This document shows, piece after piece, positions 5,828-59,615 of a stretch of DNA of 64,000 nt (within the stretch, counting starts at the first letter, position 1; each line of letters starts with the position of its first letter). The notes beneath the pieces were generated by a model. That model saw only the letters and a program-made list of their open reading frames with translations, made no database searches and had not been told where the DNA came from. The stretch lies in the sequence record PZ445432.1; one strand, 5' to 3'. A program made the position numbers and the translations under genes. Source of the stretch: a phage.

Positions 5828-6330
5828 CTAATGCTTCATATACTAGCTCATACTAGATGCAATATAACTTACAGAATCACGTCTCGGTAGTTTTTCACTC
5901 CTCCCATCTCACTTCACAACCACCTCATACTAGGTTGCTTCGAGGCCTTACCAGGGTTCCTATGGGACGCAGATCGCTAAGTATTCTATTAACTATTTGT
6001 TTAAAAACTAACACGTAACAGTTAAAACAACCCTTAATGGGGCAGCCTAACTGTTCCGTATCGCGGATTGTAAACAAGAAAAAACTTTTTCGTAAAGCTC
6101 TAGCAACGTACCTTATGCAGCTATTTACGGGTCATCGATTCCTCTCGCCGTAAATCCATTGTCAGCTTCACTAAGAAAAATTAGCAAAATCAATTTTTAC
6201 TAATGTCTCTCAATTCAATATAAATATTATAGCAAGATTTTGAGCATCATGCAAGTAAATTTTTAAGGAGAATGCTATCAGTGTCTTTGAGCACAGTGAA
6301 AACCGAGCCAAAATGACTCGGTTATGTGGA

Positions 6331-6525
6331 TTAGACACTTAAAATACTTCTAATCTCTTCTATATACTTATCTACTTTTTTAGCATCTATTTTACTTAGT
6401 TTTCCTATATCAAAATCAGGATCAGTCAAATATCTTGCCATAAATTTTACTTGTTTAGCTGAAAGTTGACCCTTATTCCACTTTTTAATTTTACCATAAC
6501 ATACCCAATATTCTTTATTCATCAT
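6331..6525 (-). CDS. hypothetical protein
   Basis: ORF from track. Confidence 0.4.
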   Translation of the reverse strand: MMNKEYWVCYGKIKKWNKGQLSAKQVKFMARYLTDPDFDIGKLSKIDAKKVDKYIEEIRSILSV

Positions 6526-6907
6526 TTAGTCCCGAAACATAAATCCCAACACGGTTTAATTGTTCTTTGGCTTCTTTGAGAATATCTGGAGTGTACTCCC
6601 AAATATCATCTTCCACCTGTAAAAGATGGGGCGAACAACCGTCATCGGGCACACGACATATGGCCAAACCACGTGGATGGAACAAAGAGAAATTTAGTGC
6701 AACAATTAAACCCATAGCAGACAACTCATTCCAATCCAATTCCCATTCCCTAGCGTAGCCTGATAGGAAAACACCAATACAGGGATCGTCTATTTGCTGC
6801 TCCGGAAAAGTAAAGGAGGCTTGTCTTACCCCCAACCAACGTTGTAGCAGCTTCTCCGCACGCTTCACCAAACTAGGATCAATCTGACGCCAATATACTT
6901 GTTCCAT
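6515..6907 (-). CDS. hypothetical protein (paralog of 6917-7345)
   Basis: shares CIGVFL...W.EL.AMGL..ALN..LF.P block with the adjacent ORF. Confidence 0.5.
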   Translation of the reverse strand: MEQVYWRQIDPSLVKRAEKLLQRWLGVRQASFTFPEQQIDDPCIGVFLSGYAREWELDWNELSAMGLIVALNFSLFHPRGLAICRVPDDGCSPHLLQVEDDIWEYTPDILKEAKEQLNRVGIYVSGLNDE

Positions 6908-6916
6908 TGTGCCACC

Positions 6917-7345
6917 TTAGGCAGTTAAACCAGGAATTTGATAACCAAAACGACGAAGTTTCTGGATACCATCATTTACTTCTTCCGGTGAGTAAGACCA
7001 ACCGTAATGTTCATCAACTTGAAAGCCAGGAGATTCACTGGTTTTATAGTTAACAACAATACGGTGTTTATTGGGCATAAATAGCTTATAGTTTAATGCA
7101 AAAACCAACCCCATTTCATCCAGCTCTTTCCAGCCGACAATCTCTTCCAGACCATCCTCTACCTGCACAACTAGACCAATACACGGGGCCTCATCAATAT
7201 CATCTTTAAAAGCAAAGGAGATTTCATTATTTTCACACCATATTTTCAAGGAGTTAATAGTCTCATTATACAGGCTAGCTGGGAGAGTACGCCAGAAGTT
7301 AACCAAAATTGGATTAGCTTCTTTAGAGAATACATTATTGAACAT
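6917..7345 (-). CDS. hypothetical protein (paralog of 6515-6907)
   Basis: CIGLVVQ...WKELDEMGLVFALNYKLFMP similar to neighbour. Confidence 0.5.
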   Translation of the reverse strand: MFNNVFSKEANPILVNFWRTLPASLYNETINSLKIWCENNEISFAFKDDIDEAPCIGLVVQVEDGLEEIVGWKELDEMGLVFALNYKLFMPNKHRIVVNYKTSESPGFQVDEHYGWSYSPEEVNDGIQKLRRFGYQIPGLTA

Positions 7346-7347
7346 AT

Positions 7348-7854
7348 TTACACCTTAAGTTGTTGTAGGGCTTTACACATTTCAAGATCTGGACTAAATT
7401 CTAGCATATAGCTAACAGCCATTAAATCTTGAAGGTTTATTCCAGTTCTACCGTTGACTATAACCGTTGGATACTGGTACATCATAGCACCAGCGTCATC
7501 CAGCACACACCAATGTTTGAGCTTATGCTTTTCAACGAAGCGAAGAACAGAATTACCCCTAGATAGCCCACCACCAGTAAAATCCGTTGTACCAAGAAAA
7601 CGATCAATAAGATCTAATCTGGTCATAATCTGAACGTTCTCCATCTCATTCCTGACAGAGAACCATGAAGATACCCCAACAATCATTATTGGAGAAGGAC
7701 GAATAAAGTCCTGAAAAGCCTTGAGAAGCGGCTTAAAAACCCAGTCACTTCCAAAGAAAATCTTTTCATCATCAGGTGCATGATGGTGGGAGATGCTCGA
7801 ATTAAGCACCCCATCGATGTCTAGAAAAATAATTGGAGTATTACTTATTTCCAT
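7348..7854 (-). CDS. HAD-superfamily phosphatase-like protein
   Basis: N-terminal FLDIDGVL motif (DxDG nucleophile motif of HAD hydrolases). Confidence 0.55.
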   Translation of the reverse strand: MEISNTPIIFLDIDGVLNSSISHHHAPDDEKIFFGSDWVFKPLLKAFQDFIRPSPIMIVGVSSWFSVRNEMENVQIMTRLDLIDRFLGTTDFTGGGLSRGNSVLRFVEKHKLKHWCVLDDAGAMMYQYPTVIVNGRTGINLQDLMAVSYMLEFSPDLEMCKALQQLKV

Positions 7855-8023
7855 TTCTGTTCCTTTCTAAGAACGTATCATACTCAACCGTATCAACATA
7901 TATGACACCATAGTCATCGGATTTATAGTCCATTTCCCATAGCTCACATCGATAGCACCAACTACCATCCGCCCATACAAATATATCATCGGGATGTGTA
8001 TACACAGATTTAACTATGGACAT
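7841..8023 (-). CDS. hypothetical protein
   Basis: ORF from track. Confidence 0.35.
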   Translation of the reverse strand: MSIVKSVYTHPDDIFVWADGSWCYRCELWEMDYKSDDYGVIYVDTVEYDTFLERNRNGNK

Positions 8024-8838
8024 ATTTGTTTTCCCGGCATATAAGGTCTACCCTCTAGATGAGCTTCTACACGAGCAATAAAACCAGGATCACTGAAAGC
8101 ATCTACTGCACCTTTACTCCAGTAAGGAATACCACGATCTTCCAGTTGGTACATATCACTACGAGTCATACCTTGATAGCCTGGTTTCGACGCTAGGGCA
8201 CTATCATAGTAGTTAACTACCATAAGTTTCGCAGCAGTCCGATTAAGAACAGGGAATAGTTCCCAGTAGAAGTTAATTACTTGGTTAGAGCAACCAACTA
8301 CAACGATCATATCTTGACTGGTAATACCATCAAAAATATTGTACATTTCTGCGTACGCTGGAGCATGCTCACCAAAAAAGATTACATTAGGTTTAACCCA
8401 TTTATAATCATCTGGGTCAATAGAGTTATACCCAACATCAATAACCCGTTTATTACTACTATTGTAGCTATCAGCTACAACAACCTCTTTTAAATATCCG
8501 TGAATGTGCAGAATATCACTATGTGGAACGCCAGCACGCTCAATAAGGTCATCAACGTTGGTAGTCAAGTTTACTACTTGACCCGGATATTTCTTATACC
8601 ATTCACCAATACGCAAGTGTGCAAGATTAGGTTCAACAGTTTCTAACTCTTCACGCCGCTTGTTGTAAAACATATGGGTTTTATGATAAAAGTTACCACG
8701 AAAGGCGTGAATATTACATACTTCTTCTAGATCATAATCATCCCACAGTGCTTTACCACTAGCAGTATCGGTACGAAAAGCTCGTACACCACTTTCAACG
8801 CTCAAACCTGCACCGCTAATAATAATTAATCTACGCAC
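8014..8838 (-). CDS. Sir2-family NAD-dependent deacetylase-like protein
   Basis: GAGLSVESGVRAFR and TTNVDDL motifs characteristic of sirtuins. Confidence 0.7.
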   Translation of the reverse strand: MRRLIIISGAGLSVESGVRAFRTDTASGKALWDDYDLEEVCNIHAFRGNFYHKTHMFYNKRREELETVEPNLAHLRIGEWYKKYPGQVVNLTTNVDDLIERAGVPHSDILHIHGYLKEVVVADSYNSSNKRVIDVGYNSIDPDDYKWVKPNVIFFGEHAPAYAEMYNIFDGITSQDMIVVVGCSNQVINFYWELFPVLNRTAAKLMVVNYYDSALASKPGYQGMTRSDMYQLEDRGIPYWSKGAVDAFSDPGFIARVEAHLEGRPYMPGKQICP

Positions 8839-9225: not shown

Positions 9226-9580
9226 CTGTTTCTAGGTCTTCGTCAAAAAAACTAGAGTATGTATCTTTAAGATACTGTTTAATACTCCAAGTAATATCTT
9301 CGTATCCATCTGGACTACGTTGGTATACTTTTAACACTCTATTATACACAAATTCAAGATTACATTTTACTTCATCTCTGTCTTCATCAAACAAGCAATA
9401 TGGGTTATATGGCGATACATCTAGATTTGTTTCCACCCAATCACCAATAACGGTGGGGTATCCAGCACCATCTATATGAGAGTAATCACCTGTGGCAGCA
9501 AAGACAGCCTCAGCAATATCATCCACGCCCAGATGGAAATCACCACATGTAGATTCAACTATATAGGGCTTTAATTCCAT
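9182..9580 (-). CDS. hypothetical acidic protein
   Basis: ORF from track; conserved promoter copy upstream at 9603-9648. Confidence 0.5.
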   Translation of the reverse strand: MELKPYIVESTCGDFHLGVDDIAEAVFAATGDYSHIDGAGYPTVIGDWVETNLDVSPYNPYCLFDEDRDEVKCNLEFVYNRVLKVYQRSPDGYEDITWSIKQYLKDTYSSFFDEDLETVAVEFNNDQECETP

Positions 9581-9648: not shown

Positions 9649-9679
9649 GCCAGGTCGACTAGCAACCCGGCTGATTAGC

Positions 9680-48931: not shown

Positions 48932-49225
48932 TAATCTCATAGATTAAAAACATCAACTTGTTTTTACCTCTAGGCCGTAGATTTACATCATTCCTCGTAG
49001 GAAAACACTTGATGACGGTTCTGTTCGCAGGTTCTCGTCAATTGTTCTTCCTCCCCGAGACTCAGGAGGATGTATCAAATCGCACGCGCCTAGAGGGGCT
49101 AACTCTCATGAAATGGGGGTATATTAACTTTTAAATAACTGATAAATATTTAAAGGCAATATCTGTGTTCAAGATGATACACCTGTTGCCGCTCATCTGC
49201 TAGGATGGCACAACACTTTCTTCTA

Positions 49226-50065
49226 GACTCCTAAGTTTCTAGGAAATTGATAAGCACAAATTCTAGAGATCGCACAAAAATATTCATCGGATTTGCACAT
49301 ATTCTAGGAAATTGATAAGTACAAAAATATTCATCGGATTTGCACATATTCTAGGGCAGTTTCTCTCAAACGTTACACATACTAGGCGGTTAATATAGGG
49401 CGGTTATAGGGAGGGCGGTTATTTCTAGGAGACATTTTTTGAAAACACATTTCTGGATTTTACTGTCGGATTTGCACACTGCATTTCTAGAAATTTATGG
49501 TCGGATTTGCACAAACGCCTAAGTTTTTAGGAACATATAATCTCTTGAAAATGGCAGCATTATTTCGGGCCGAAGGCCCATGATTGCCTGAGTTTTTAGA
49601 GCCACAGGAATTTTCACTTGTCAAGCTATTTTGCCCCATTTTGCTAATAAAATTTTACTTTTTCTGCACCTATCTCAAATTTCCCCAAATTATCTCAACT
49701 CTTCCCCAAAACCCCGCAAATCAGGTGCTCCGCACCAATCCTGCGCCCACACCATTCTAGCCTCCCAAATTTCTCTCGCTCTCTCATCTTCTCCTCAAAC
49801 CTATACAATCACACACCCTCTCATCGAAGTCACAAAAATTTCATCGGATTCGCACAAATAAACCCATGTCGGATTTGCACATATTCTAGCTAATTCCACA
49901 GGATTGATGCGCAGCATCGGATTGCTGGAGTTTTTGGGAAAATTCGTCGTCGGATTCGCACATCACAAAAGTTTTTAGGGTCGGATTTGCACACTACCAA
50001 AAATTGTCGGATTCGCACATACACGCCCGCACGTAACACCCGTGGAGCAATGTCGGATTTGCACA
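49226..50065 (+). repeat. array of ~12 direct copies of core tcggat(t/c)(t/c)gcaca, some inside longer ~50-bp repeat units
   Basis: repeated atcggatttgcacatattctag, gtcggatttgcacactgc, gtcggattcgcacat and similar, all on one strand. Confidence 0.7.
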
Positions 50066-50071
50066 AAAGCG

Positions 50072-50089
50072 CAGGGCAATTGCCCTGCG
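50072..50089. repeat. 18-bp perfect palindrome gcagggcaattgccctgc
   Basis: read directly. Confidence 0.7.
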
Positions 50090-50094
50090 ACTTT

Positions 50095-50335
50095 GAATGA
50101 GAATCATTATCATTTAAGAAGTGGAATGCAAATGATAATTATTCTCATTTAAGAAGTGGAATGATTCTCATTTAATAAGTGGAATGCAAATGATAATTAT
50201 TCTCATTTAAGAAGTGGAATGAGAACTATTCAAGAAGTGAAACGATTCTCATTAAAGAAGCGAAACGATTCTCATCCTAGAAAGGGAATGCAAATGATAA
50301 TGATTCTCATTTAAAAACGGAAGTGAGAAACACTG
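50095..50335 (+). repeat. tandem degenerate repeats of (g)attctcatttaagaagtggaatg
   Basis: about 8 copies with variants aagaagtgaaacg / aagaagcgaaacg / aaaaacggaagtg. Confidence 0.7.
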
Positions 50336-50344
50336 TTATTTAAG

Positions 50345-50452
50345 TTATCCACAGACTTATTAACAGCACGATTTGACTTGACAGAATCCTAGCCATTTTG
50401 AGGCGTTATCCACAGACTTATCCACAGCTTATTCTACTGTATAAATATACAG
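50345..50452. repeat. left inverted module with three DnaA-box 9-mers (TTATCCACA) and 16-bp palindrome ctgtataaatatacag
   Basis: ttatccaca at ~50345, ~50406 and ~50418; palindrome at 50437-50452. Confidence 0.7.
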
Positions 50453-50648
50453 TATTCCTACGCAGTGAATAATTCTAATATAGGCCTAAAACGTCCTGAA
50501 TCGCATTCTAGCGCGTTTTATTTTGGCGGGGATACTAAAACAAGGGCAAAACTGGAGGAGGCTTAGAAATTAGTTAGCTCGCTAACGATCACACAAGGCG
50601 ACACGTAACACCCTAATCATTAGCAGGCTAACCATCGCGGGCGCGGTC

Positions 50649-50669
50649 AAATGAGAATCATTCTCATTT
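50649..50669. repeat. 21-bp palindrome aaatgagaatcattctcattt
   Basis: read directly; related to the gattctcattt repeat unit. Confidence 0.6.
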
Positions 50670-50709
50670 GAGGATTGGGGGCACTTCCTGATAATTGCCC
50701 CCGTGATTA

Positions 50710-50904
50710 TTAGTCCGGTAATTGATGCGTGATCTTCTCCTCTTCCCCGTAGGAATCGACTAAATGCTGATAATAACCATCATGATCATAAATGACTTTA
50801 TCATATTCGCCCAGCTCGACCGCTTGCCGGTTTTCCGGAGTATCGGGCACATAAAAAACGTCAACCATTGTGGTAGTTTTGGTCACAATAATTTTATCGC
50901 TCAT
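50710..50904 (-). CDS. hypothetical protein
   Basis: ORF from track. Confidence 0.45.
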   Translation of the reverse strand: MSDKIIVTKTTTMVDVFYVPDTPENRQAVELGEYDKVIYDHDGYYQHLVDSYGEEEKITHQLPD

Positions 50905-50919
50905 AATAACGCCCCGTTA

Positions 50920-51114
50920 TTAGTTGACTATCTCAAAGATAGCGTTCTCAAGTGTCGCCCTTAGGATCCCATCGCGCCCTACTACGGAATACTTGAGATC
51001 AGGTATTTTGTAACGCTCAATTGCTTTGAGTAATTGATCTTTTTGGGCTTTATATTTTTGCCCTTCTCGCGCTATCGTGTCGCCTTCGGCTTTAATGCAA
51101 ATCAGTGTAACCAT
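50920..51114 (-). CDS. hypothetical protein
   Basis: internal ATG preceded by AGGGGG RBS; track ORF extends to 51201. Confidence 0.45.
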   Translation of the reverse strand: MVTLICIKAEGDTIAREGQKYKAQKDQLLKAIERYKIPDLKYSVVGRDGILRATLENAIFEIVN

Positions 51115-51396
51115 AATAATCCCCCTAGTAAATATATTTTTGCCAATAGCGGCGAACGTTATCGCCACCAGCGGAATCATTAGCTGCCTTACTATTACCA
51201 ACGAAAATATATAATCTCATTAGTATTATTTTCCCCGCATTAATTTATACATAACTAACATCCCGCAAAACTGACCTAAGATAGTGCAGACAACAAGGGA
51301 TAACACAATATTGCCTATGGTGTTATAAGTAACCACACCAACAATAAGGGATAATGCATACCCTAGCAGGGCAATATAAACAGCCATATTATTTAC

Positions 51397-51732
51397 CTAT
51401 TTTCGAAACGCTGTTTCAATACTATCAGCCGTGGATTGAATATACGCGCCTTTCATTATCAGGCGCTCGGTGCATACTTTGCGAAAAATATTAATAAAAT
51501 CATCTTCATTTTCTGCGATTAACGCCTCCCCCATGACCTGAATATCACACGATGCAAAGGTCAAAAATTGAAACGCTAGTTCACGGGCGACGACCGCATT
51601 AATTTTATAATGCGCCTTTCCATCGTAAATATTAACAACGCCCTTATATTCAGGCGAAAGCTGATTTAAGTAGTTTGCTAATAATCCCGGGCGGCAATTA
51701 GTAACAAAGCGATTCCCTTCATAAATTACCAT
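51397..51732 (-). CDS. hypothetical protein
   Basis: ATG preceded by GGGAGG RBS. Confidence 0.5.
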   Translation of the reverse strand: MVIYEGNRFVTNCRPGLLANYLNQLSPEYKGVVNIYDGKAHYKINAVVARELAFQFLTFASCDIQVMGEALIAENEDDFINIFRKVCTERLIMKGAYIQSTADSIETAFRK

Positions 51733-51855
51733 TTTATAACCTCCCAATCAGATAGCCAGATAAAAGCATAAAAATCCCCAGCGAACTAGGGTCATTCTTA
51801 AACAAGGTGGCGGTAAAACCGCCAACCATTGCAAGGATAACAACAATAACGCTTT

Positions 51856-52068
51856 TCATAGTACCCCACGAAACGCAGCGTAAAAGGTGGCAAAGTGTCT
51901 AACCGTTTCAGCTATCACGTTGCCGCGCTTATCGAATTTTTTCTCGGTAACACGAAAGGCGTTTTTATTCCGTGCTACATATTCGATTTTACAATCTTCC
52001 CGCTCGAACGTGTTAACGTCCACCAGCTTAAAGCCTTTGGAACGAGCAAGGGAAACATTACGAATCAT
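51856..52068 (-). CDS. hypothetical protein
   Basis: ORF from track. Confidence 0.45.
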   Translation of the reverse strand: MIRNVSLARSKGFKLVDVNTFEREDCKIEYVARNKNAFRVTEKKFDKRGNVIAETVRHFATFYAAFRGVL

Positions 52069-52070
52069 TT

Positions 52071-52259
52071 TTATTCTCCTTTACTATTCATGCAGCCCAG
52101 CAGATAAGAAAATACAGCGACACCCGCGCCAATAATAACCATAGGTTTAGTATTTGCTAAACTGCAATAAGAATCCTGAATACCATAAGCGGTGGCGAAA
52201 AGAGTCAAAATAGCGCCCAAGATACCTGCTAAAAAAGCCCGAAAAATAACCATTTTCAT
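52071..52259 (-). CDS. small membrane protein
   Basis: two hydrophobic helices. Confidence 0.4.
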   Translation of the reverse strand: MKMVIFRAFLAGILGAILTLFATAYGIQDSYCSLANTKPMVIIGAGVAVFSYLLGCMNSKGE

Positions 52260-52299
52260 TCTCCTAGTTAGTGGGGCGAAAGTAGCGCCCCGTTATTAC

Positions 52300-52530
52300 T
52301 TACATTAAAACGATTTTGGCGGCTTGTTTTTTGGTGCAATGTTCTGCTTTCAGGGTATCCAGCAAAAAGCCCGCCGTTTGCTGATCGATTTGATCATTAT
52401 CATAAAGCGCCTGAATGGTAGTGTAAGTTTTAGCAATGCCGTATTCTTGCACCATTTCTTGAATGATCCAGCGATTTGATACCCAGCCTTTTCCAGTGAA
52501 AAGATGACTAGCAGAAGAATAAGCAACCAT
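52300..52530 (-). CDS. hypothetical protein
   Basis: ORF from track. Confidence 0.45.
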   Translation of the reverse strand: MVAYSSASHLFTGKGWVSNRWIIQEMVQEYGIAKTYTTIQALYDNDQIDQQTAGFLLDTLKAEHCTKKQAAKIVLM

Positions 52531-52648
52531 TATAAGCCTCCAAAATTTTTTGGGAAATTTTCAACCGTCCTCAAACGGTGTAAGGGCATTATAACAAAAA
52601 GGCCGCCATAATCGGCGACCTTTACAAAACTTTACATTAGATTATTTA

Positions 52649-53641
52649 TTACTCGTTTTCGGTGTTAGTGGTAAAAGTAGAAATATCGATACCTTTTACC
52701 ATTTCATCAATCATCTCAGCGATGTTAAAACTTTGCACCATTTCCAACATTGCCGCTTCCATAGCCGCTCCTGCTACCGCTTTCGCTTTCTGGTTATTCG
52801 GGGCGTACTGGTCAACCGCTACACTCAGCAGGTTAGCGATCACTACTCGACCGATCGGCGTATCAATATAGCCTTTAATCATAAATGGCGCTTTTTTAGC
52901 CGCTACTTTCGTGATTTGAGTTAGTGCAATTTTACCCGCTTCCAGTTTTGCAGCATTTACAACAGCGGATTTATTAGCGGCAACGATGTTAGCGATCTTA
53001 GTCATGGTATTTTTTCCTTTGTTTTCAGTGGTTTGAGTGTTAACGCTTTGAGTGTTAGAATTTACAGCATGTTTTTCTATATTGTCAATAGGCTGATCTT
53101 CATCTTTCCAGAAAGAAAAGCCCGCGCTTTCTATATCCCCATCGTATACGTATGGGTATACTTCCGACGGTAGCAAAAAATTGCCATCATCATCAAAGGC
53201 CATTACAGCCGCCAGACGATACCCGTCACCGATTGACCGATTCCAGCCAACTGATAAATAACGCCAAAATGAATCAAGAAAGTTTTCAACGTCATAAAGA
53301 TCCTTATCATAAGGCTCATAATTTTCTATTGAAAAAACTTCTAAGCCCGCCCCAGCATCATAGGCTTTTACTGTGCTACCTTTTACGATTATGAAATCAG
53401 TGTCCGGCCCCCTACTAGTAAGCAGGTGATTATCCCTATTATATAAGATAATAGTTGCCCCTTGCTTATATAATGGTAGAAAACTACTCATATCATAGGC
53501 GTCGAAATCATCAAAAAAATTCTGGTGAATATCTTCGGCCTTGTTAACAAAGTGCTTAATGCTGGTTGTTCTGCTACCGTCCAGCAGGTTGCGCAGCGCA
53601 CCTTTTAAGACGGTTGCGTTATCTGGTTTATATAGCCTCAT
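52649..53641 (-). CDS. hypothetical protein (330 aa)
   Basis: ORF from track; largest gene in the inverted-repeat-bracketed block. Confidence 0.55.
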   Translation of the reverse strand: MRLYKPDNATVLKGALRNLLDGSRTTSIKHFVNKAEDIHQNFFDDFDAYDMSSFLPLYKQGATIILYNRDNHLLTSRGPDTDFIIVKGSTVKAYDAGAGLEVFSIENYEPYDKDLYDVENFLDSFWRYLSVGWNRSIGDGYRLAAVMAFDDDGNFLLPSEVYPYVYDGDIESAGFSFWKDEDQPIDNIEKHAVNSNTQSVNTQTTENKGKNTMTKIANIVAANKSAVVNAAKLEAGKIALTQITKVAAKKAPFMIKGYIDTPIGRVVIANLLSVAVDQYAPNNQKAKAVAGAAMEAAMLEMVQSFNIAEMIDEMVKGIDISTFTTNTENE

Positions 53642-53907
53642 TTGTTGGCCTCCCTCGTTAATCGGTGAGTGAATGATAAAGGCAATTTTCTAGCATAGGC
53701 AAATATTATTTTACCTTTTTATTTTCCTTGCCTAGCGCCTAGTTTTATGCTAACCGCGCAGCGGTACAGTAAAGAGCAAAACACGGTGAAGCCACCAGGC
53801 CGACGCGTTGAGGCTTTACTTTAATATTACCCCACTGCGTTTAGCTCGTTAGAAAGCGATTTAGGCCGCTTAAAATTGATTGCAGTTGTTAACACTACCT
53901 TTTTACC

Positions 53908-54015
53908 CTGTATATTTATACAGTAGGATAACCTGTGGATAAGTCTGTGGATAAGCCCTTATATCGCCGCCTATTGTGTCAAATCATTTTGTGCTGTGAT
54001 TAAGTCTGTGGATAA
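53908..54015. repeat. right inverted module with three DnaA-box 9-mers on the opposite strand and palindrome ctgtatatttatacag
   Basis: tgtggataa at 53934, 53946 and 54007; palindrome at 53908-53923; reverse complement matches the left module. Confidence 0.7.
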
Positions 54016-54039
54016 CTTAAATGATAGTTTTTCTCACTT

Positions 54040-54420
54040 AGGCCGATAGTTTCTTATAGTGATTATTTTTATAGTGATTATTTTTATAGTTATTATTTCT
54101 CATTAATTTATATGTATATTATATAATATGAAATAGTTAGTTGGCTAATGAGATTTTACGGGATTAGTAGTCTGCTAATGGTTCAGGCTGTTACAATCCA
54201 CCAGCACGATTATCATTCTAGTAATTATTAGTCTGCTATCTTTCTAATACACAACAACAAATAAAAGTCAATTAATTAATTTTATAAAATAACTCATTTA
54301 GTCTTGATTTTTAAAAGTCAATACCTTTTACAACTATTTTTCAATTTTGCTTTTATTAAATATTTGTTAAGTCGAAAATAAGCCGCCTAAAACGCCCTAG
54401 AAAGCGGTAAAATTTTCAGG
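54040..54420. repeat. AT-rich region with short direct repeats (ttatagtgattattttta copies; agtctgctaa copies)
   Basis: read directly; adjacent to the DnaA-box module. Confidence 0.55.
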
Positions 54421-54765
54421 TATCCCATCATAAGGGGATAGCCCGTTTATCGTCACCTGATGGATTCTAGAAAAATCAAGTAGGGCAAGGCAAATATAAG
54501 TGAAAAAATTACTTGCCTATCTGCTATGTTTTGTGGTATCCGCGCGCCCGTTTCCTTTAAACTTGGGCAATCGCCGGACACCTTGCTTTCTTTACATTTC
54601 TTTACAAAAATAAGGTTGCGCCATTTTTGGTATTTGCTATTATTTACCTCGTAGGGCGGCAATGACGAACTACACGGCGGGAAGTTTACCGCCGCGCTCT
54701 TTAAAAATTGGGTATATCTTAAAGTCTATCGGCGGCAAACTTATACATTATAAGGAATCGCAGAT

Positions 54766-55552: not shown

Positions 55553-55969
55553 ATGACTAACGTTAAAGCCGAAAAATCCGCAAAATTTGCTTGGAATGAA
55601 GAAAACACCCAGCAGGCGGTTACTATGTATCAGCAGTTAATTAATGAAAACGGATTAGATTTTGCAAATAGCGACGGTTTAAAAGAGATTGCGAAAGCAG
55701 TTGGCGCGGCTTCTCCCGTGTCCGTTCGGTCAAAATTGACCAGCGCGAAAGCCTATCAAAAAAGCGATAAGCCGCGCAAAGTTGGCGGCGGCAGTTCAAT
55801 CCGCAAAGCGCATTACGTGCGCGTTATTGCAAAACATGCCATCGATTCCGGCATTATCAAGGACGCCGATGATCTGGCATCACTGGAAAGCGCAAAATTA
55901 GAAACGTTGGACGTCGTGGCGCAGATGTTAGGCGTTGCCGATGAAGTAAAACAAGCCGCAGGCGAATAA
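55553..55969 (+). CDS. hypothetical protein
   Basis: ORF from track. Confidence 0.5.
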   Translation: MTNVKAEKSAKFAWNEENTQQAVTMYQQLINENGLDFANSDGLKEIAKAVGAASPVSVRSKLTSAKAYQKSDKPRKVGGGSSIRKAHYVRVIAKHAIDSGIIKDADDLASLESAKLETLDVVAQMLGVADEVKQAAGE

Positions 55970-56353: not shown

Positions 56354-58024
56354 ATGGTTATTTCCGCAGAAAAACAAACCCAGATCCTCAACCTTGCCGC
56401 TGATTTCAATTTCTATGGTAAACGTCTGCGCGCTACTAAGCTGGAAGTTTGTGACGATATTTCAAAAGCTGTTTATGATACGCCGAAACATTCCACCGCT
56501 ATTTGTGACTGGTTGGAAGCAAATAAACCAGCGAAACCGAAAGCGGCGAAAGTAGCAAAAGCCATAAAAAACGATGACCGCCCTGAAGCCGCTGGAGTTA
56601 TTTCTAGCACGGTGGAGCAATGGGAAGTAAAACAAGGCAAACGCTTTATCATTACATCGATTCAGAATAATACTTTCCCGCATAAAAACTTTTTGGCCGC
56701 GCTTGAACAATATGCCCAATTTATTGGAGCTGATTTGCTGGTTAGCAAGTATATTTATAATAAAAACGGTTTTCAAAATGGGGAAGGGGCAGACGGAATC
56801 AAATATGATTCTGCATTTGACAAATATATTTGCAGCAAAAACGTGTTTTTAAATAACCGCCGCTTTGCTTTCATGGCTGAAATTAATGTTTTGCCAACCG
56901 CAGATTATCCGCTATCTGGATTTGCTGAAACTGCAACCGCGCTTAATCTGGAAGGTCTGGCAATTGGTCACGCTAAAATCACCGCCGAAAGCGTGCCAGC
57001 TTTAAAAGGTGAAGTAGTGCGCCGCATGTATTCAACCGGAACGGCAACGCTAAAAAATTACATTCAGCAGAAGGCAGGGCAAAAAGCGGAAGCGTTACAT
57101 AATTTTGGTGCGCTGATTGTCGAGTTCGACGAGGACGGAGAATTTTTTGTTCGCCAGCTTGAAACGATGGACGAAAGCGGCGTTTTTTACGATTTGAATA
57201 TTTGCGCCACTCCCACCGGATGCTATGAAACAACGGGGCACGTTTTAGGTTTACAGTATGGTGACATCCACGCTGAAAAATTAGATGAAGAGTGCGCCGC
57301 TGCATCATGGGGGCATGGTGATACCTATGGGCTTGTGGATATTCTCAAACCAAAATATCAATTCGTCCATGACGTGCATGATTTTACATCACGCAACCAT
57401 CACAACCGCGCCTCCGGTGTATTCCTAGCAAAACAGTACGCCGCCGGACGTGATAAGGTTCTGGATGATCTTATCGATACGGGGCGCGTACTGGAAGCAA
57501 TGGAGCGTGATTTCTCTCAAACAATCATTGTTGAATCGAATCACGATCTGGCGTTATCCCGCTGGCTTGATGATCGTAATGCTAACATTAAAGACGACCC
57601 AGCAAACGCGGAACTATATCACCGCCTGAATGCCGCGATTTACGGAGCTATCGCAGAAAAAGACGAAACCTTCAACGTGCTTGATTATGCGTTGCGCAAG
57701 GTTGCAGGTTGCGAGTTTAACGCCATTTTCCTAACGACTGACCAATCTTTCAAGATTGCAGGCATTGAATGCGGCGTACACGGTCACAATGGCATTAACG
57801 GGAGTCGTGGCAATCCTAAACAGTTTAAGAAATTGGGCAAATTAAACACGGGGCATACTCATACGGCAAGCATTTACGGCGGTGTATATACCGCTGGCGT
57901 TGCTGGTAGTCTGGACATGGGTTACAACGTTGGCGCGTCAAGCTGGACGCAAACGCATATTATTACCTATGTAAACGGTCAGCGCACTTTGATTGACTTT
58001 AAGAATGGTAAATTTTTCGCATAA
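56354..58024 (+). CDS. A1: pre-early protein A1-like (metallophosphatase-like motifs)
   Basis: 556 aa as recalled for T5 A1; GDIHAE and GHNG...GHTHTA motifs; synteny with A2-like and dmp-like genes. Confidence 0.7.
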   Translation: MVISAEKQTQILNLAADFNFYGKRLRATKLEVCDDISKAVYDTPKHSTAICDWLEANKPAKPKAAKVAKAIKNDDRPEAAGVISSTVEQWEVKQGKRFIITSIQNNTFPHKNFLAALEQYAQFIGADLLVSKYIYNKNGFQNGEGADGIKYDSAFDKYICSKNVFLNNRRFAFMAEINVLPTADYPLSGFAETATALNLEGLAIGHAKITAESVPALKGEVVRRMYSTGTATLKNYIQQKAGQKAEALHNFGALIVEFDEDGEFFVRQLETMDESGVFYDLNICATPTGCYETTGHVLGLQYGDIHAEKLDEECAAASWGHGDTYGLVDILKPKYQFVHDVHDFTSRNHHNRASGVFLAKQYAAGRDKVLDDLIDTGRVLEAMERDFSQTIIVESNHDLALSRWLDDRNANIKDDPANAELYHRLNAAIYGAIAEKDETFNVLDYALRKVAGCEFNAIFLTTDQSFKIAGIECGVHGHNGINGSRGNPKQFKKLGKLNTGHTHTASIYGGVYTAGVAGSLDMGYNVGASSWTQTHIITYVNGQRTLIDFKNGKFFA

Positions 58025-58880: not shown

Positions 58881-59615
58881 ATGAATCAAGTTAAAACGAA
58901 TATTACCCGTAATTTCCCGCATGTTTCCCGCGTCATGATCTGGGATCTGGATGGCACTATCGTTAACTCATTCCATCGCGTAGCGCCTTGCTTTGATAGT
59001 GATGGTAATCTAGATCTGAATAAGTATAAAAATGAAGCGTGCAAACATGATTTAATAATGCAAGATACTTTATTGCCGCTTGTTACATATATGCGCCAAT
59101 GCATGAATGACGCAAATACTTTAAACATTATTTGTACCGCTCGACTGATGAGCAAGTCGGACTATTATTATTTGCGCAAACAAGGCTTGCGAGGGCGTGG
59201 GAATAGCAATATCCGTGTATTTTCCCGCGATACACTGCATAAGTATTTTGAAGCTGATAAAGTTAGCGAAATATACCACAGTAAGGACGCAGTTTATAAA
59301 AGCCACTACTTTGAGTTATTTAAGCAGTTATATCCGAACGCTGATTTCACGATGATAGACGATCATAAAGGTGTGCTAGCAGCGGCGGCATCATACGGAT
59401 TTAAAACGTTGGACGCGCAAGCCGTTAACGATATTCTATCAATCGGTGTTACATTGATAGGCGAAACCTTTATCGACGAATCTCTTGAGGATGATAATGA
59501 TTATCAGTTCCTAGTCGATCGCTTGCAATTATGTTGGGAAAGTATGACCGAGGAAGAACGCGCAGAATATAGTTGCAGCCCGCAACAATATATCGAGAAA
59601 CTAAAAGTTGCATAG
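58881..59615 (+). CDS. dmp: 5'-deoxyribonucleotidase (HAD family)
   Basis: MIWDLDGTIVNS HAD motif I; 244 aa from the internal ATG with GGAG RBS. Confidence 0.7.
   Translation: MNQVKTNITRNFPHVSRVMIWDLDGTIVNSFHRVAPCFDSDGNLDLNKYKNEACKHDLIMQDTLLPLVTYMRQCMNDANTLNIICTARLMSKSDYYYLRKQGLRGRGNSNIRVFSRDTLHKYFEADKVSEIYHSKDAVYKSHYFELFKQLYPNADFTMIDDHKGVLAAAASYGFKTLDAQAVNDILSIGVTLIGETFIDESLEDDNDYQFLVDRLQLCWESMTEEERAEYSCSPQQYIEKLKVA

Follow-up and report, generated by a model that had tools for sequence, protein, structure and literature searches.

The 64,000-nucleotide stretch of phage DNA analysed here (PZ445432.1; the window) comes from the T5-like Escherichia phage HildyBeyeler (MZ501074; 100% identity to the window) and carries a pair of inverted arms, 132 nucleotides (nt) long and 83% complementary, at 50321–50452 and 53908–54039. 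Each arm combines two pairs of DnaA boxes with a palindrome, known in T5 as palindrome D, that resembles the LexA operator. We lean towards the explanation that the arms are arrays of protein sites for host DnaA and probably LexA, which would form a complex at the boundary of the first-step-transfer (FST) DNA. Wang (2005) and Davison (2020) have already described the arms with their DnaA boxes and the variable block that they enclose. The finding is thus a correct rediscovery of a known candidate element and introduces no feature of a new type; what is new is that the two arms do not co-evolve and that palindrome D can be read as a LexA operator, a reading apparently unreported. Observed directly are the identity of the element, its motif content, the enrichment of the motifs, their deep conservation and the lack of arm co-evolution.

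The inverted pair was delimited with a repeat finder, 3455 nt separating the arms, and pairwise alignment placed the same elements in the same order in both. Outward from the bracketed block, each arm begins with one LexA-type operator motif (CTGT-N8-ACAG), which is followed after 9–10 nt by a DnaA-box pair; a spacer of ~50 nt separates this from a further pair, beyond which lies a conserved tail. A previous interpretation made from the letters alone (the sequence-only reading) had described two inverted modules of common architecture in this region. The left module does align to the reverse complement of the right as an inverted copy, and the palindrome reported for both is present in both. 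The modules are real; their limits needed correction, as the repeat reaches ~24 nt further outward on either side, to 50321 and 54039. The sole spacer element common to the left and right classes of arm is TGTCAA (50378–50383; 53976–53981, minus strand), which read on the other strand is a perfect −35 hexamer (TTGACA) directed at the inner box pair and palindrome on the block side; neither arm has a −10 element at a suitable distance after it.

The T5 GenBank record annotates inverted repeats C (6022–6060), D (6112–6152), D′ (9332–9372) and C′ (9424–9462), together with palindrome D (9330–9349). The left arm (module L, 50321–50452), which is the arm closest to the injection-stop region, is the orthologue of T5 IRD′-spacer-IRC′ (T5 9332–9462); it is 92.4% identical to T5 over 171 nt, without gaps against T5 9315–9485, and 89–95% identical to other Tequintavirus left arms. 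The right arm (module R, 53908–54039), located in the A2-side region of divergent pre-early promoters, is the orthologue of T5 IRC-spacer-IRD (T5 6022–6152), with 82.6% identity over 138 nt, and coordinate mapping matches T5 6022–8221 to window positions 54038–51854. A four-way alignment of both HildyBeyeler arms and both T5 arms is gapless, including the spacer. The features of the T5-type repeat are all found: a ~131-bp inverted pair inside the terminal repeat, at the A2-side and pre-injection-stop positions; eight boxes, DnaA or variant, paired at 3 bp with a constant ~52-bp spacer between the pairs; and a variable gene block between the arms, on the strand opposite to A1 and A2. The Davison preprint (bioRxiv 10.1101/866236) describes two inverted repeats of 131 bp whose eight DnaA or variant boxes are paired at a distance of 3 bp and whose spacer is constant; they are conserved in 25 T5-like phages around a highly variable 3-kb block. 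Its model is that membrane-bound DnaA arrests the entering DNA; it also speculates on a knot involving both repeats, and dates the first notice of a DnaA box to 1987.

In conventionally oriented relatives the region is reversed and lies in the left terminal repeat at ~4.3–9.7 kb, which is the FST DNA. Read in the T5 orientation, the window runs from the left terminus (~59.7 kb) through dmp, A1 (58024–56354) and A2 (55969–55553) to an untranslated divergent promoter region (54760–53642) that holds the right arm, followed by the nine-gene block and the left arm. Beyond the left arm come repeated AATGAGAATCATTCTCATT palindromes (50330–50090), then palindrome J with a nick-site homologue (~50089–50062), and then at least 12 DRD repeats that continue past the end of the terminal repeat. 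The left arm enters ~250–380 bp ahead of the homologue of the 7.9% nick and shear point, and so is, in this layout, the last of the long conserved elements to go in before the stop. The location in FST DNA and the published interpretation of the element agree with one suggestion of the sequence-only reading, that this may be an injection-stop or host-takeover control region. The same reading thought the bracketed block richer in G + C (GC) than its surroundings. The fraction is 0.41 in the block, 0.39 in the window and 0.42 on the A2-A1-dmp side, a negligible difference; the slightly higher GC is a property of the whole FST DNA and not of the block specifically. The GC skew, computed as had been proposed, tracked gene orientation only.

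The window contains eight copies of the consensus DnaA box TTATCCACA, where chance would give 0.74; 100 shuffles never produced eight, so that the 9-mers are commoner than base composition predicts. Six of the eight lie within the modules, three per arm. The box triplets noted earlier are there, joined in either arm by a variant box as the fourth (TTATTAACA, 50357, on the left; TTAATCACA, 53995, on the right). Box starts fall at 50345, 50357, 50406 and 50418 in the left arm and at 53934, 53946, 53995 and 54007 in the right, forming two pairs per arm with 3-nt gaps. On the plus strand of the left arm, a motif scan resolves the outer pair (50345–50365) into TTATCCACA, gac, TTATTAACA (perfect box 4 and variant box 3) and the inner pair (50406–50426) into TTATCCACA, gac, TTATCCACA. 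On the minus strand of the right arm, it finds two perfect TTATCCACA boxes with a 3-nt gap in the inner pair (53934–53954), and TTATCCACA (54007–54015) with the variant TTAATCACA (53995–54003) in the outer pair (53995–54015).

These TTWTNCACA 9-mers are conserved as well as enriched over chance. Box 4 is nearly invariant in 42 unique arms (23 left-type and 19 right-type) extracted from viral contigs, and three distant relatives (contigs L059, L076 and L069) have arrays of three to five consensus boxes with 2-nt gaps, a pattern that supports real recognition by DnaA as the predicted ligand. In Tequintavirus left arms a consensus box has a variant box as its stable partner; this pairing, and the presence of off-consensus boxes elsewhere, suggests either pairs of strong and weak sites or a second ligand. 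A further co-occurrence of a DnaA box with CTGT-N8-ACAG, at 63.1 kb, was set down to chance: it lies within an open reading frame (ORF) of 595 amino acids (aa), and its motif interior is GC-rich.

CTGT-N8-ACAG itself is found four times in the window, where 0.61 are expected, and occurs in both arms with an AT-rich interior. The left-arm 20-mer TACTGTATAAATATACAGTA (50435–50454), which begins 9–10 nt past the inner DnaA box, is identical to T5 palindrome D (9330–9349) and has one mismatch (19/20) to the LexA operator consensus TACTGTATATATATACAGTA, a match of which none is expected by chance. Its right-arm counterpart CCCTGTATATTTATACAGTA (53906–53925) has three mismatches (17/20), with CTGT-N8-ACAG intact. 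What the sequence-only reading called a 16-bp palindrome can be recognised as a near-perfect LexA operator motif and a candidate site. LexA operators follow the consensus TACTG(TA)5CAGTA, and constant half-sites around a varying interior are the pattern to be expected of them. Eight divergent modules have unchanged half-sites amid drift of the flanking sequence and of the N8 interior; the interior reads ATAAATAT, ATGTTTAT, TTATTTAT or TTAGGTGT in different lineages, with ACTGT and ACAGT constant. The palindrome keeps its fixed distance of 9–10 nt from the inner DnaA box in Tequintavirus, in both arms of Klebsiella Sugarlandvirus phages (whose arms are only ~75% identical to those of the window), in Vibrio Pogseptimavirus phages and in metagenomic relatives with an A1 only 31% identical. 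We advance tentatively, as a doubtful but tenable idea, that host LexA binds palindrome D with high affinity as a true operator, and that the composite LexA and DnaA module around it is the ancestral and most conserved non-coding element of Demerecviridae first-injected DNA. LexA or the SOS response in connection with T5 or Tequintavirus finds no mention in the Davison preprint or in the searchable T5 papers, a set that does not take in the 2015 review or the 1987 paper.

In left and right arms alike, the centre of the palindrome (50444–50445; 53915–53916) is TT in some phages and AA in close relatives of theirs. Single-step intermediates and the perfectly symmetric (TA)n form are never seen among the 42 arms. 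The switches look like repeated small inversions of a quasi-palindrome centre, possibly by hairpin-loop flipping.

Arm-to-arm identity was compared across 17 Tequintavirus genomes with 5000 permutations. Within genomes it amounts to 0.7616, a value that 1883 of the permutations reach, and between genomes to 0.7609; orthologous arms are far more alike (left–left 0.93, right–right 0.86). As identity within genomes equals that between genomes, there has been no gene conversion and no compensatory evolution between the arms; the co-variation or homogenisation within genomes that marks a long-range stem is absent. Left and right arms share columns at the palindrome, at each of the four boxes, at the spacer motif TGTCAA and at the TTCTCACT tail. 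About 550 phage records carry the arms, which predate the genus and are not homogenised. In a scan of viral contigs for the composite pattern, about half of the 54 distinct matches were chance occurrences in unrelated contigs. The lack of co-evolution argues against a DNA or RNA stem, a ‘knot’ or a recombination substrate, and argues for two independent mirror-image arrays of predicted binding sites.

Under the explanation that we favour, host DnaA and probably LexA would load onto these sites as the DNA enters, strong boxes nucleating binding at the weaker boxes beside them. The nucleoprotein complex so formed, positioned at the boundary of the FST DNA, would arrest or mark the DNA until A1 and A2 act. 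The injection-stop-proximal arm would be the ancestral one, and the right arm would repeat the same complex, as a secondary copy, at the divergent pre-early promoters. It is position and conservation, following Davison's model, that point to these proteins as the probable ligands and to a possible injection-stop role.

Several observations weigh against this account. The right arm enters ~3.5 kb before the stop point and cannot itself be the stop, and it is not obvious how transfer would be arrested by proteins on DNA that has already entered the cell. The boxes of Sugarlandvirus left arms are all off-consensus (TTATCAACA). The palindrome is broken in the left arm of Kpn02 (CTGG) and in 3 of the 19 unique right arms (TTGT), and in the Vibrio phage and in L069 the DnaA cluster near A2 comes without a palindrome. 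Nor does a conserved sigma-70 promoter lie over the palindromes (the scan returned 28 promoter-like sites against 18.9 expected): hexamer matches there are weak and differ between the arms, and the annotated pre-early promoters of T5 lie elsewhere. The palindromes thus neither overlap nor abut a recognisable repressed promoter, unlike classical SOS operators. As T5 is able to plate on recA laboratory strains, cleavage of LexA cannot be a requirement. Papers of 2023 and 2026 treat an injection stop through DnaA as a hypothesis only.

The ligands could instead be phage proteins, dimeric A2 possibly with A1, in which case the likeness to DnaA and LexA sites would be coincidence or mimicry and the arms would serve for restarting transfer or for shutting off pre-early transcription. 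A2 and A1 accompany the module in every relative examined, down to 31–40% protein identity; A2 is published as a dimeric protein that binds double-stranded DNA, and its helix-turn-helix/Myb-like predicted model makes it a plausible sequence-specific binder. The stable off-consensus ‘DnaA*’ boxes (TTATCAACA and TTATTAACA) are also hard to explain by DnaA alone. We nevertheless think this account unlikely. We regard as quite unlikely a further possibility, that the arms are transcriptional insulators or roadblocks at which DnaA and LexA, sitting on either side of the block, stop host RNA polymerase and shield the injection-stop region and the A2/A1 promoter region from read-through of the very strong pre-early promoters. 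DnaA-box complexes can block a transcribing RNA polymerase, for example at the asnC terminator. The geometry fits such a role, since both arms are oriented palindrome-first to the block, the left one after its last gene and the right one between divergent pre-early transcription units, and the rearranged Sugarlandvirus block transcribes outward to both arms. A roadblock leaves unexplained, however, why distant relatives keep only the injection-stop-proximal arm in full form.

Pairing of the arms, as a DNA cruciform, ‘knot’ or synapsis or within a long RNA, is extremely improbable as the functional unit. Complementarity of 83% over 132 nt and Davison's speculation on a knot speak for it, and the TT/AA flips suggest occasional hairpin extrusion, although of the palindrome itself. 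Against it stand the equal arm-to-arm identities within and between genomes, fixed class-specific differences in the ~50-nt spacers, and distant relatives that have no true second copy; the arms also lie outside the likely transcript of the block, and an Rfam search found no matching RNA family. The other suggestions of the sequence-only reading, namely an origin-like element, a titrator of DnaA or the trace of a mobile or invertible segment, we consider very unlikely. The clusters of DnaA boxes and the AT-rich 15-bp repeats outside the outer box of the right arm would suit an origin, but T5 origins are published to lie near the centre of the genome and the replication genes are still outside the cell at this stage; the GC skew reflects gene orientation, and eight sites are too few to titrate DnaA. 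For a mobile segment one could cite the variation of the block in content and length (1.7–4.2 kb) and the reversal of its main gene in Sugarlandvirus. PHROG and Pfam searches of the nine ORFs, however, gave no recombinase or transposase domain, the arm flanks differ and show no target-site duplication, and the block has the same orientation in 17 of 17 Tequintavirus genomes. An insertion is also at odds with arms that are ancient, unhomogenised and so widely carried, and with the negligible GC difference. Of the proposed inversion there is a remote echo in Sugarlandvirus, where the main gene of the block is reversed between the arms, but no clean arm-to-arm inversion.

The repeats next to the left arm form part of the same injection-stop region. 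The AATGAGAATCATTCTCATT palindromes (50090–50330; T5 DRC/DRE and palE-I) abut the outer end of module L. At least six copies of AATGAGAATCATTCTCATT or AATGATAATTATTCTCATT lie at 50090–50330 and 50648–50678, with others in contigs L053 (5790–6240) and L052 (5918–6010), and a degenerate copy of the motif sits beside the right arm (54016–54036). Their 7-1-7 cores, TGAGAAT-N-ATTCTCA or TGATAAT-N-ATTCTCA, resemble the Fur core TGATAAT-N-ATTATCA. Five sites among the palindromes beside the left arm match the Fur 19-mer at 15 of 19 positions when four mismatches are allowed, and none of the repeats there matches at three or fewer. The motif persists in Klebsiella and Vibrio T5-like phages. The best Fur match in the window (16/19, overlapping on both strands; 59487–59511) falls within dmp near the physical left terminus and is probably due to chance.

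Mapping from the T5 record, which has palindrome J at 9650–9666 and the nick at 9661–9668, placed palindrome J and the counterpart of the major 7.9% nick site of T5 (CCCTGCGC) at 50062–50089. The DRD repeats (GTCGGATTTGCACA; 49230–50070, plus strand), found with the repeat finder, are all in one orientation and span the end of the terminal repeat. Their 9-mer ATTTGCACA matches the DnaA consensus at eight of nine positions, and 49200–50460 contains 13 boxes with at most one mismatch on the plus strand and none on the minus strand, where ~2 are expected. A reading of the DRD repeats as weak DnaA boxes was set aside, as the conserved core includes TCGG; this core (TCGG-WTTTGCAC) reaches as far as L069, in which it makes up seven tandem 15-bp units. 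The repeats are probably a separate protein site of their own.

On the other side of the block, the untranslated divergent pre-early promoter region (53642–54760; T5 Repeat Regions 1 and 2) contains, besides module R, three AT-rich 15-bp tandem repeats at 54051–54095 (TTCTTATAGTGATTA, TTTTTATAGTGATTA and TTTTTATAGTTATTA). They adjoin the right arm only, begin 36 nt beyond its outermost DnaA box and, with a GC fraction of 0.29, mark the minimum of the region. Superficially they are like an origin unwinding element; promoter upstream sequence is more likely.

Seven to nine small minus-strand genes had been expected between the modules, several of them for membrane peptides. There are nine pre-early ORFs (50710–53641, minus strand), identified from the ORF list, from PHROG and Pfam matches and from homologues in T5, Spc35 and other phages. 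In listed order they are a DUF7566 protein (330 aa) and products of 76, 62, 70, 41, 116, 53, 93 and 64 aa. The 70-aa ORF belongs to the T5.015-like Ung-dependent nickase family according to PHROG and Pfam, and those of 62, 41 and 53 aa are visibly hydrophobic. The suggestion of a comparison with T5, BF23 and other Tequintavirus genomes was a sound one; among the relatives compared, the content of the bracketed block and the arm spacing (1.7–4.2 kb) are variable.

Block transcription runs from the A2 side to the injection-stop arm in Tequintavirus, the Vibrio phage and L069. In Sugarlandvirus (L052 6100–10300, L054 and L066) the DUF7566 homologue (34% identity) lies between retained arms on the A2/A1 strand, and the L052 block has an internal divergent start near 6700–6800, which indicates a probable old rearrangement or inversion inside the bracket. 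Since the arms are kept despite the reversed gene, they are not simply the promoter and terminator of that operon.

A2 (55553–55969, plus strand), the DNA-binding protein required for second-step transfer, was identified by phrog_1725 (‘DNA binding protein’), by homologues named A2 and by 93% identity to T5 A2. Its predicted model has two small helix-turn-helix/Myb-like bundles, with generic helix-turn-helix structural matches and nothing LexA-like. A1 (56354–58024, plus strand), required for second-step transfer and host DNA degradation, is 97% identical to T5 A1. A PDB sequence search found no relative of solved structure for either protein, and A1 has no Pfam match. By eye, A1 shows His/Asp-rich motifs (GDIH, NHD, GHNG and GHTH) reminiscent of metallophosphoesterase nucleases of the Mre11/SbcD type.

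The element bears on how T5 halts injection after 8% of its DNA and later restarts it, a question more than 50 years old. Our comparison narrows the candidate positions, as invariance across the family is confined to the DnaA-box cores and the LexA-type operator. If palindrome D is indeed an operator for LexA, LexA would join DnaA as an unrecognised player in the injection stop or in pre-early control. The Fur-like palindromes could extend this idea, as the injection-stop region may then consist of sites for abundant host DNA-binding proteins.

Set beside known systems, the element has partial likenesses to three kinds of host site. With Fur boxes (7-1-7) it is the neighbouring palindromes and not the modules that share the core type, and the positions that set Fur-family operators apart vary between palindrome copies and between phages. 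The chromosomal DnaA-box clusters oriC, datA and DARS likewise have clustered, co-oriented TTWTNCACA 9-mers with strong boxes beside weaker ones, and the 2-nt-gap arrays of distant T5-like relatives are a further likeness. The phage element differs from them in being two mirror-image copies coupled to a LexA-type palindrome, and in that the phage replication genes are still outside the cell. Gammaproteobacterial LexA operators are matched by the left arm at 19 of 20 positions, by the AT-rich CTGT-N8-ACAG of both arms, and by the fixed half-sites with variable interior; in contrast to them, the phage box has no recognisable conserved promoter overlap and lies beside DnaA boxes in non-coding DNA of a strictly lytic phage.

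The closest system is that of T5 itself, IRC-spacer-IRD and IRD′-spacer-IRC′ with palindrome D in Repeat Regions 2 and 3 of the FST DNA (Heusterspreute 1987; Wang 2005; Davison 2015/2020), to which the HildyBeyeler arms are orthologous and with which they share length, terminal-repeat position, four boxes per arm, spacer length, palindrome and variable block. The two phages differ in that HildyBeyeler has six perfect boxes, whereas T5 IRD′-IRC′ has one consensus and three variant boxes; T5 IRC carries a 2-bp deletion; and HildyBeyeler lacks the HNH endonuclease insertion that separates Repeat Regions 1 and 2 in T5.

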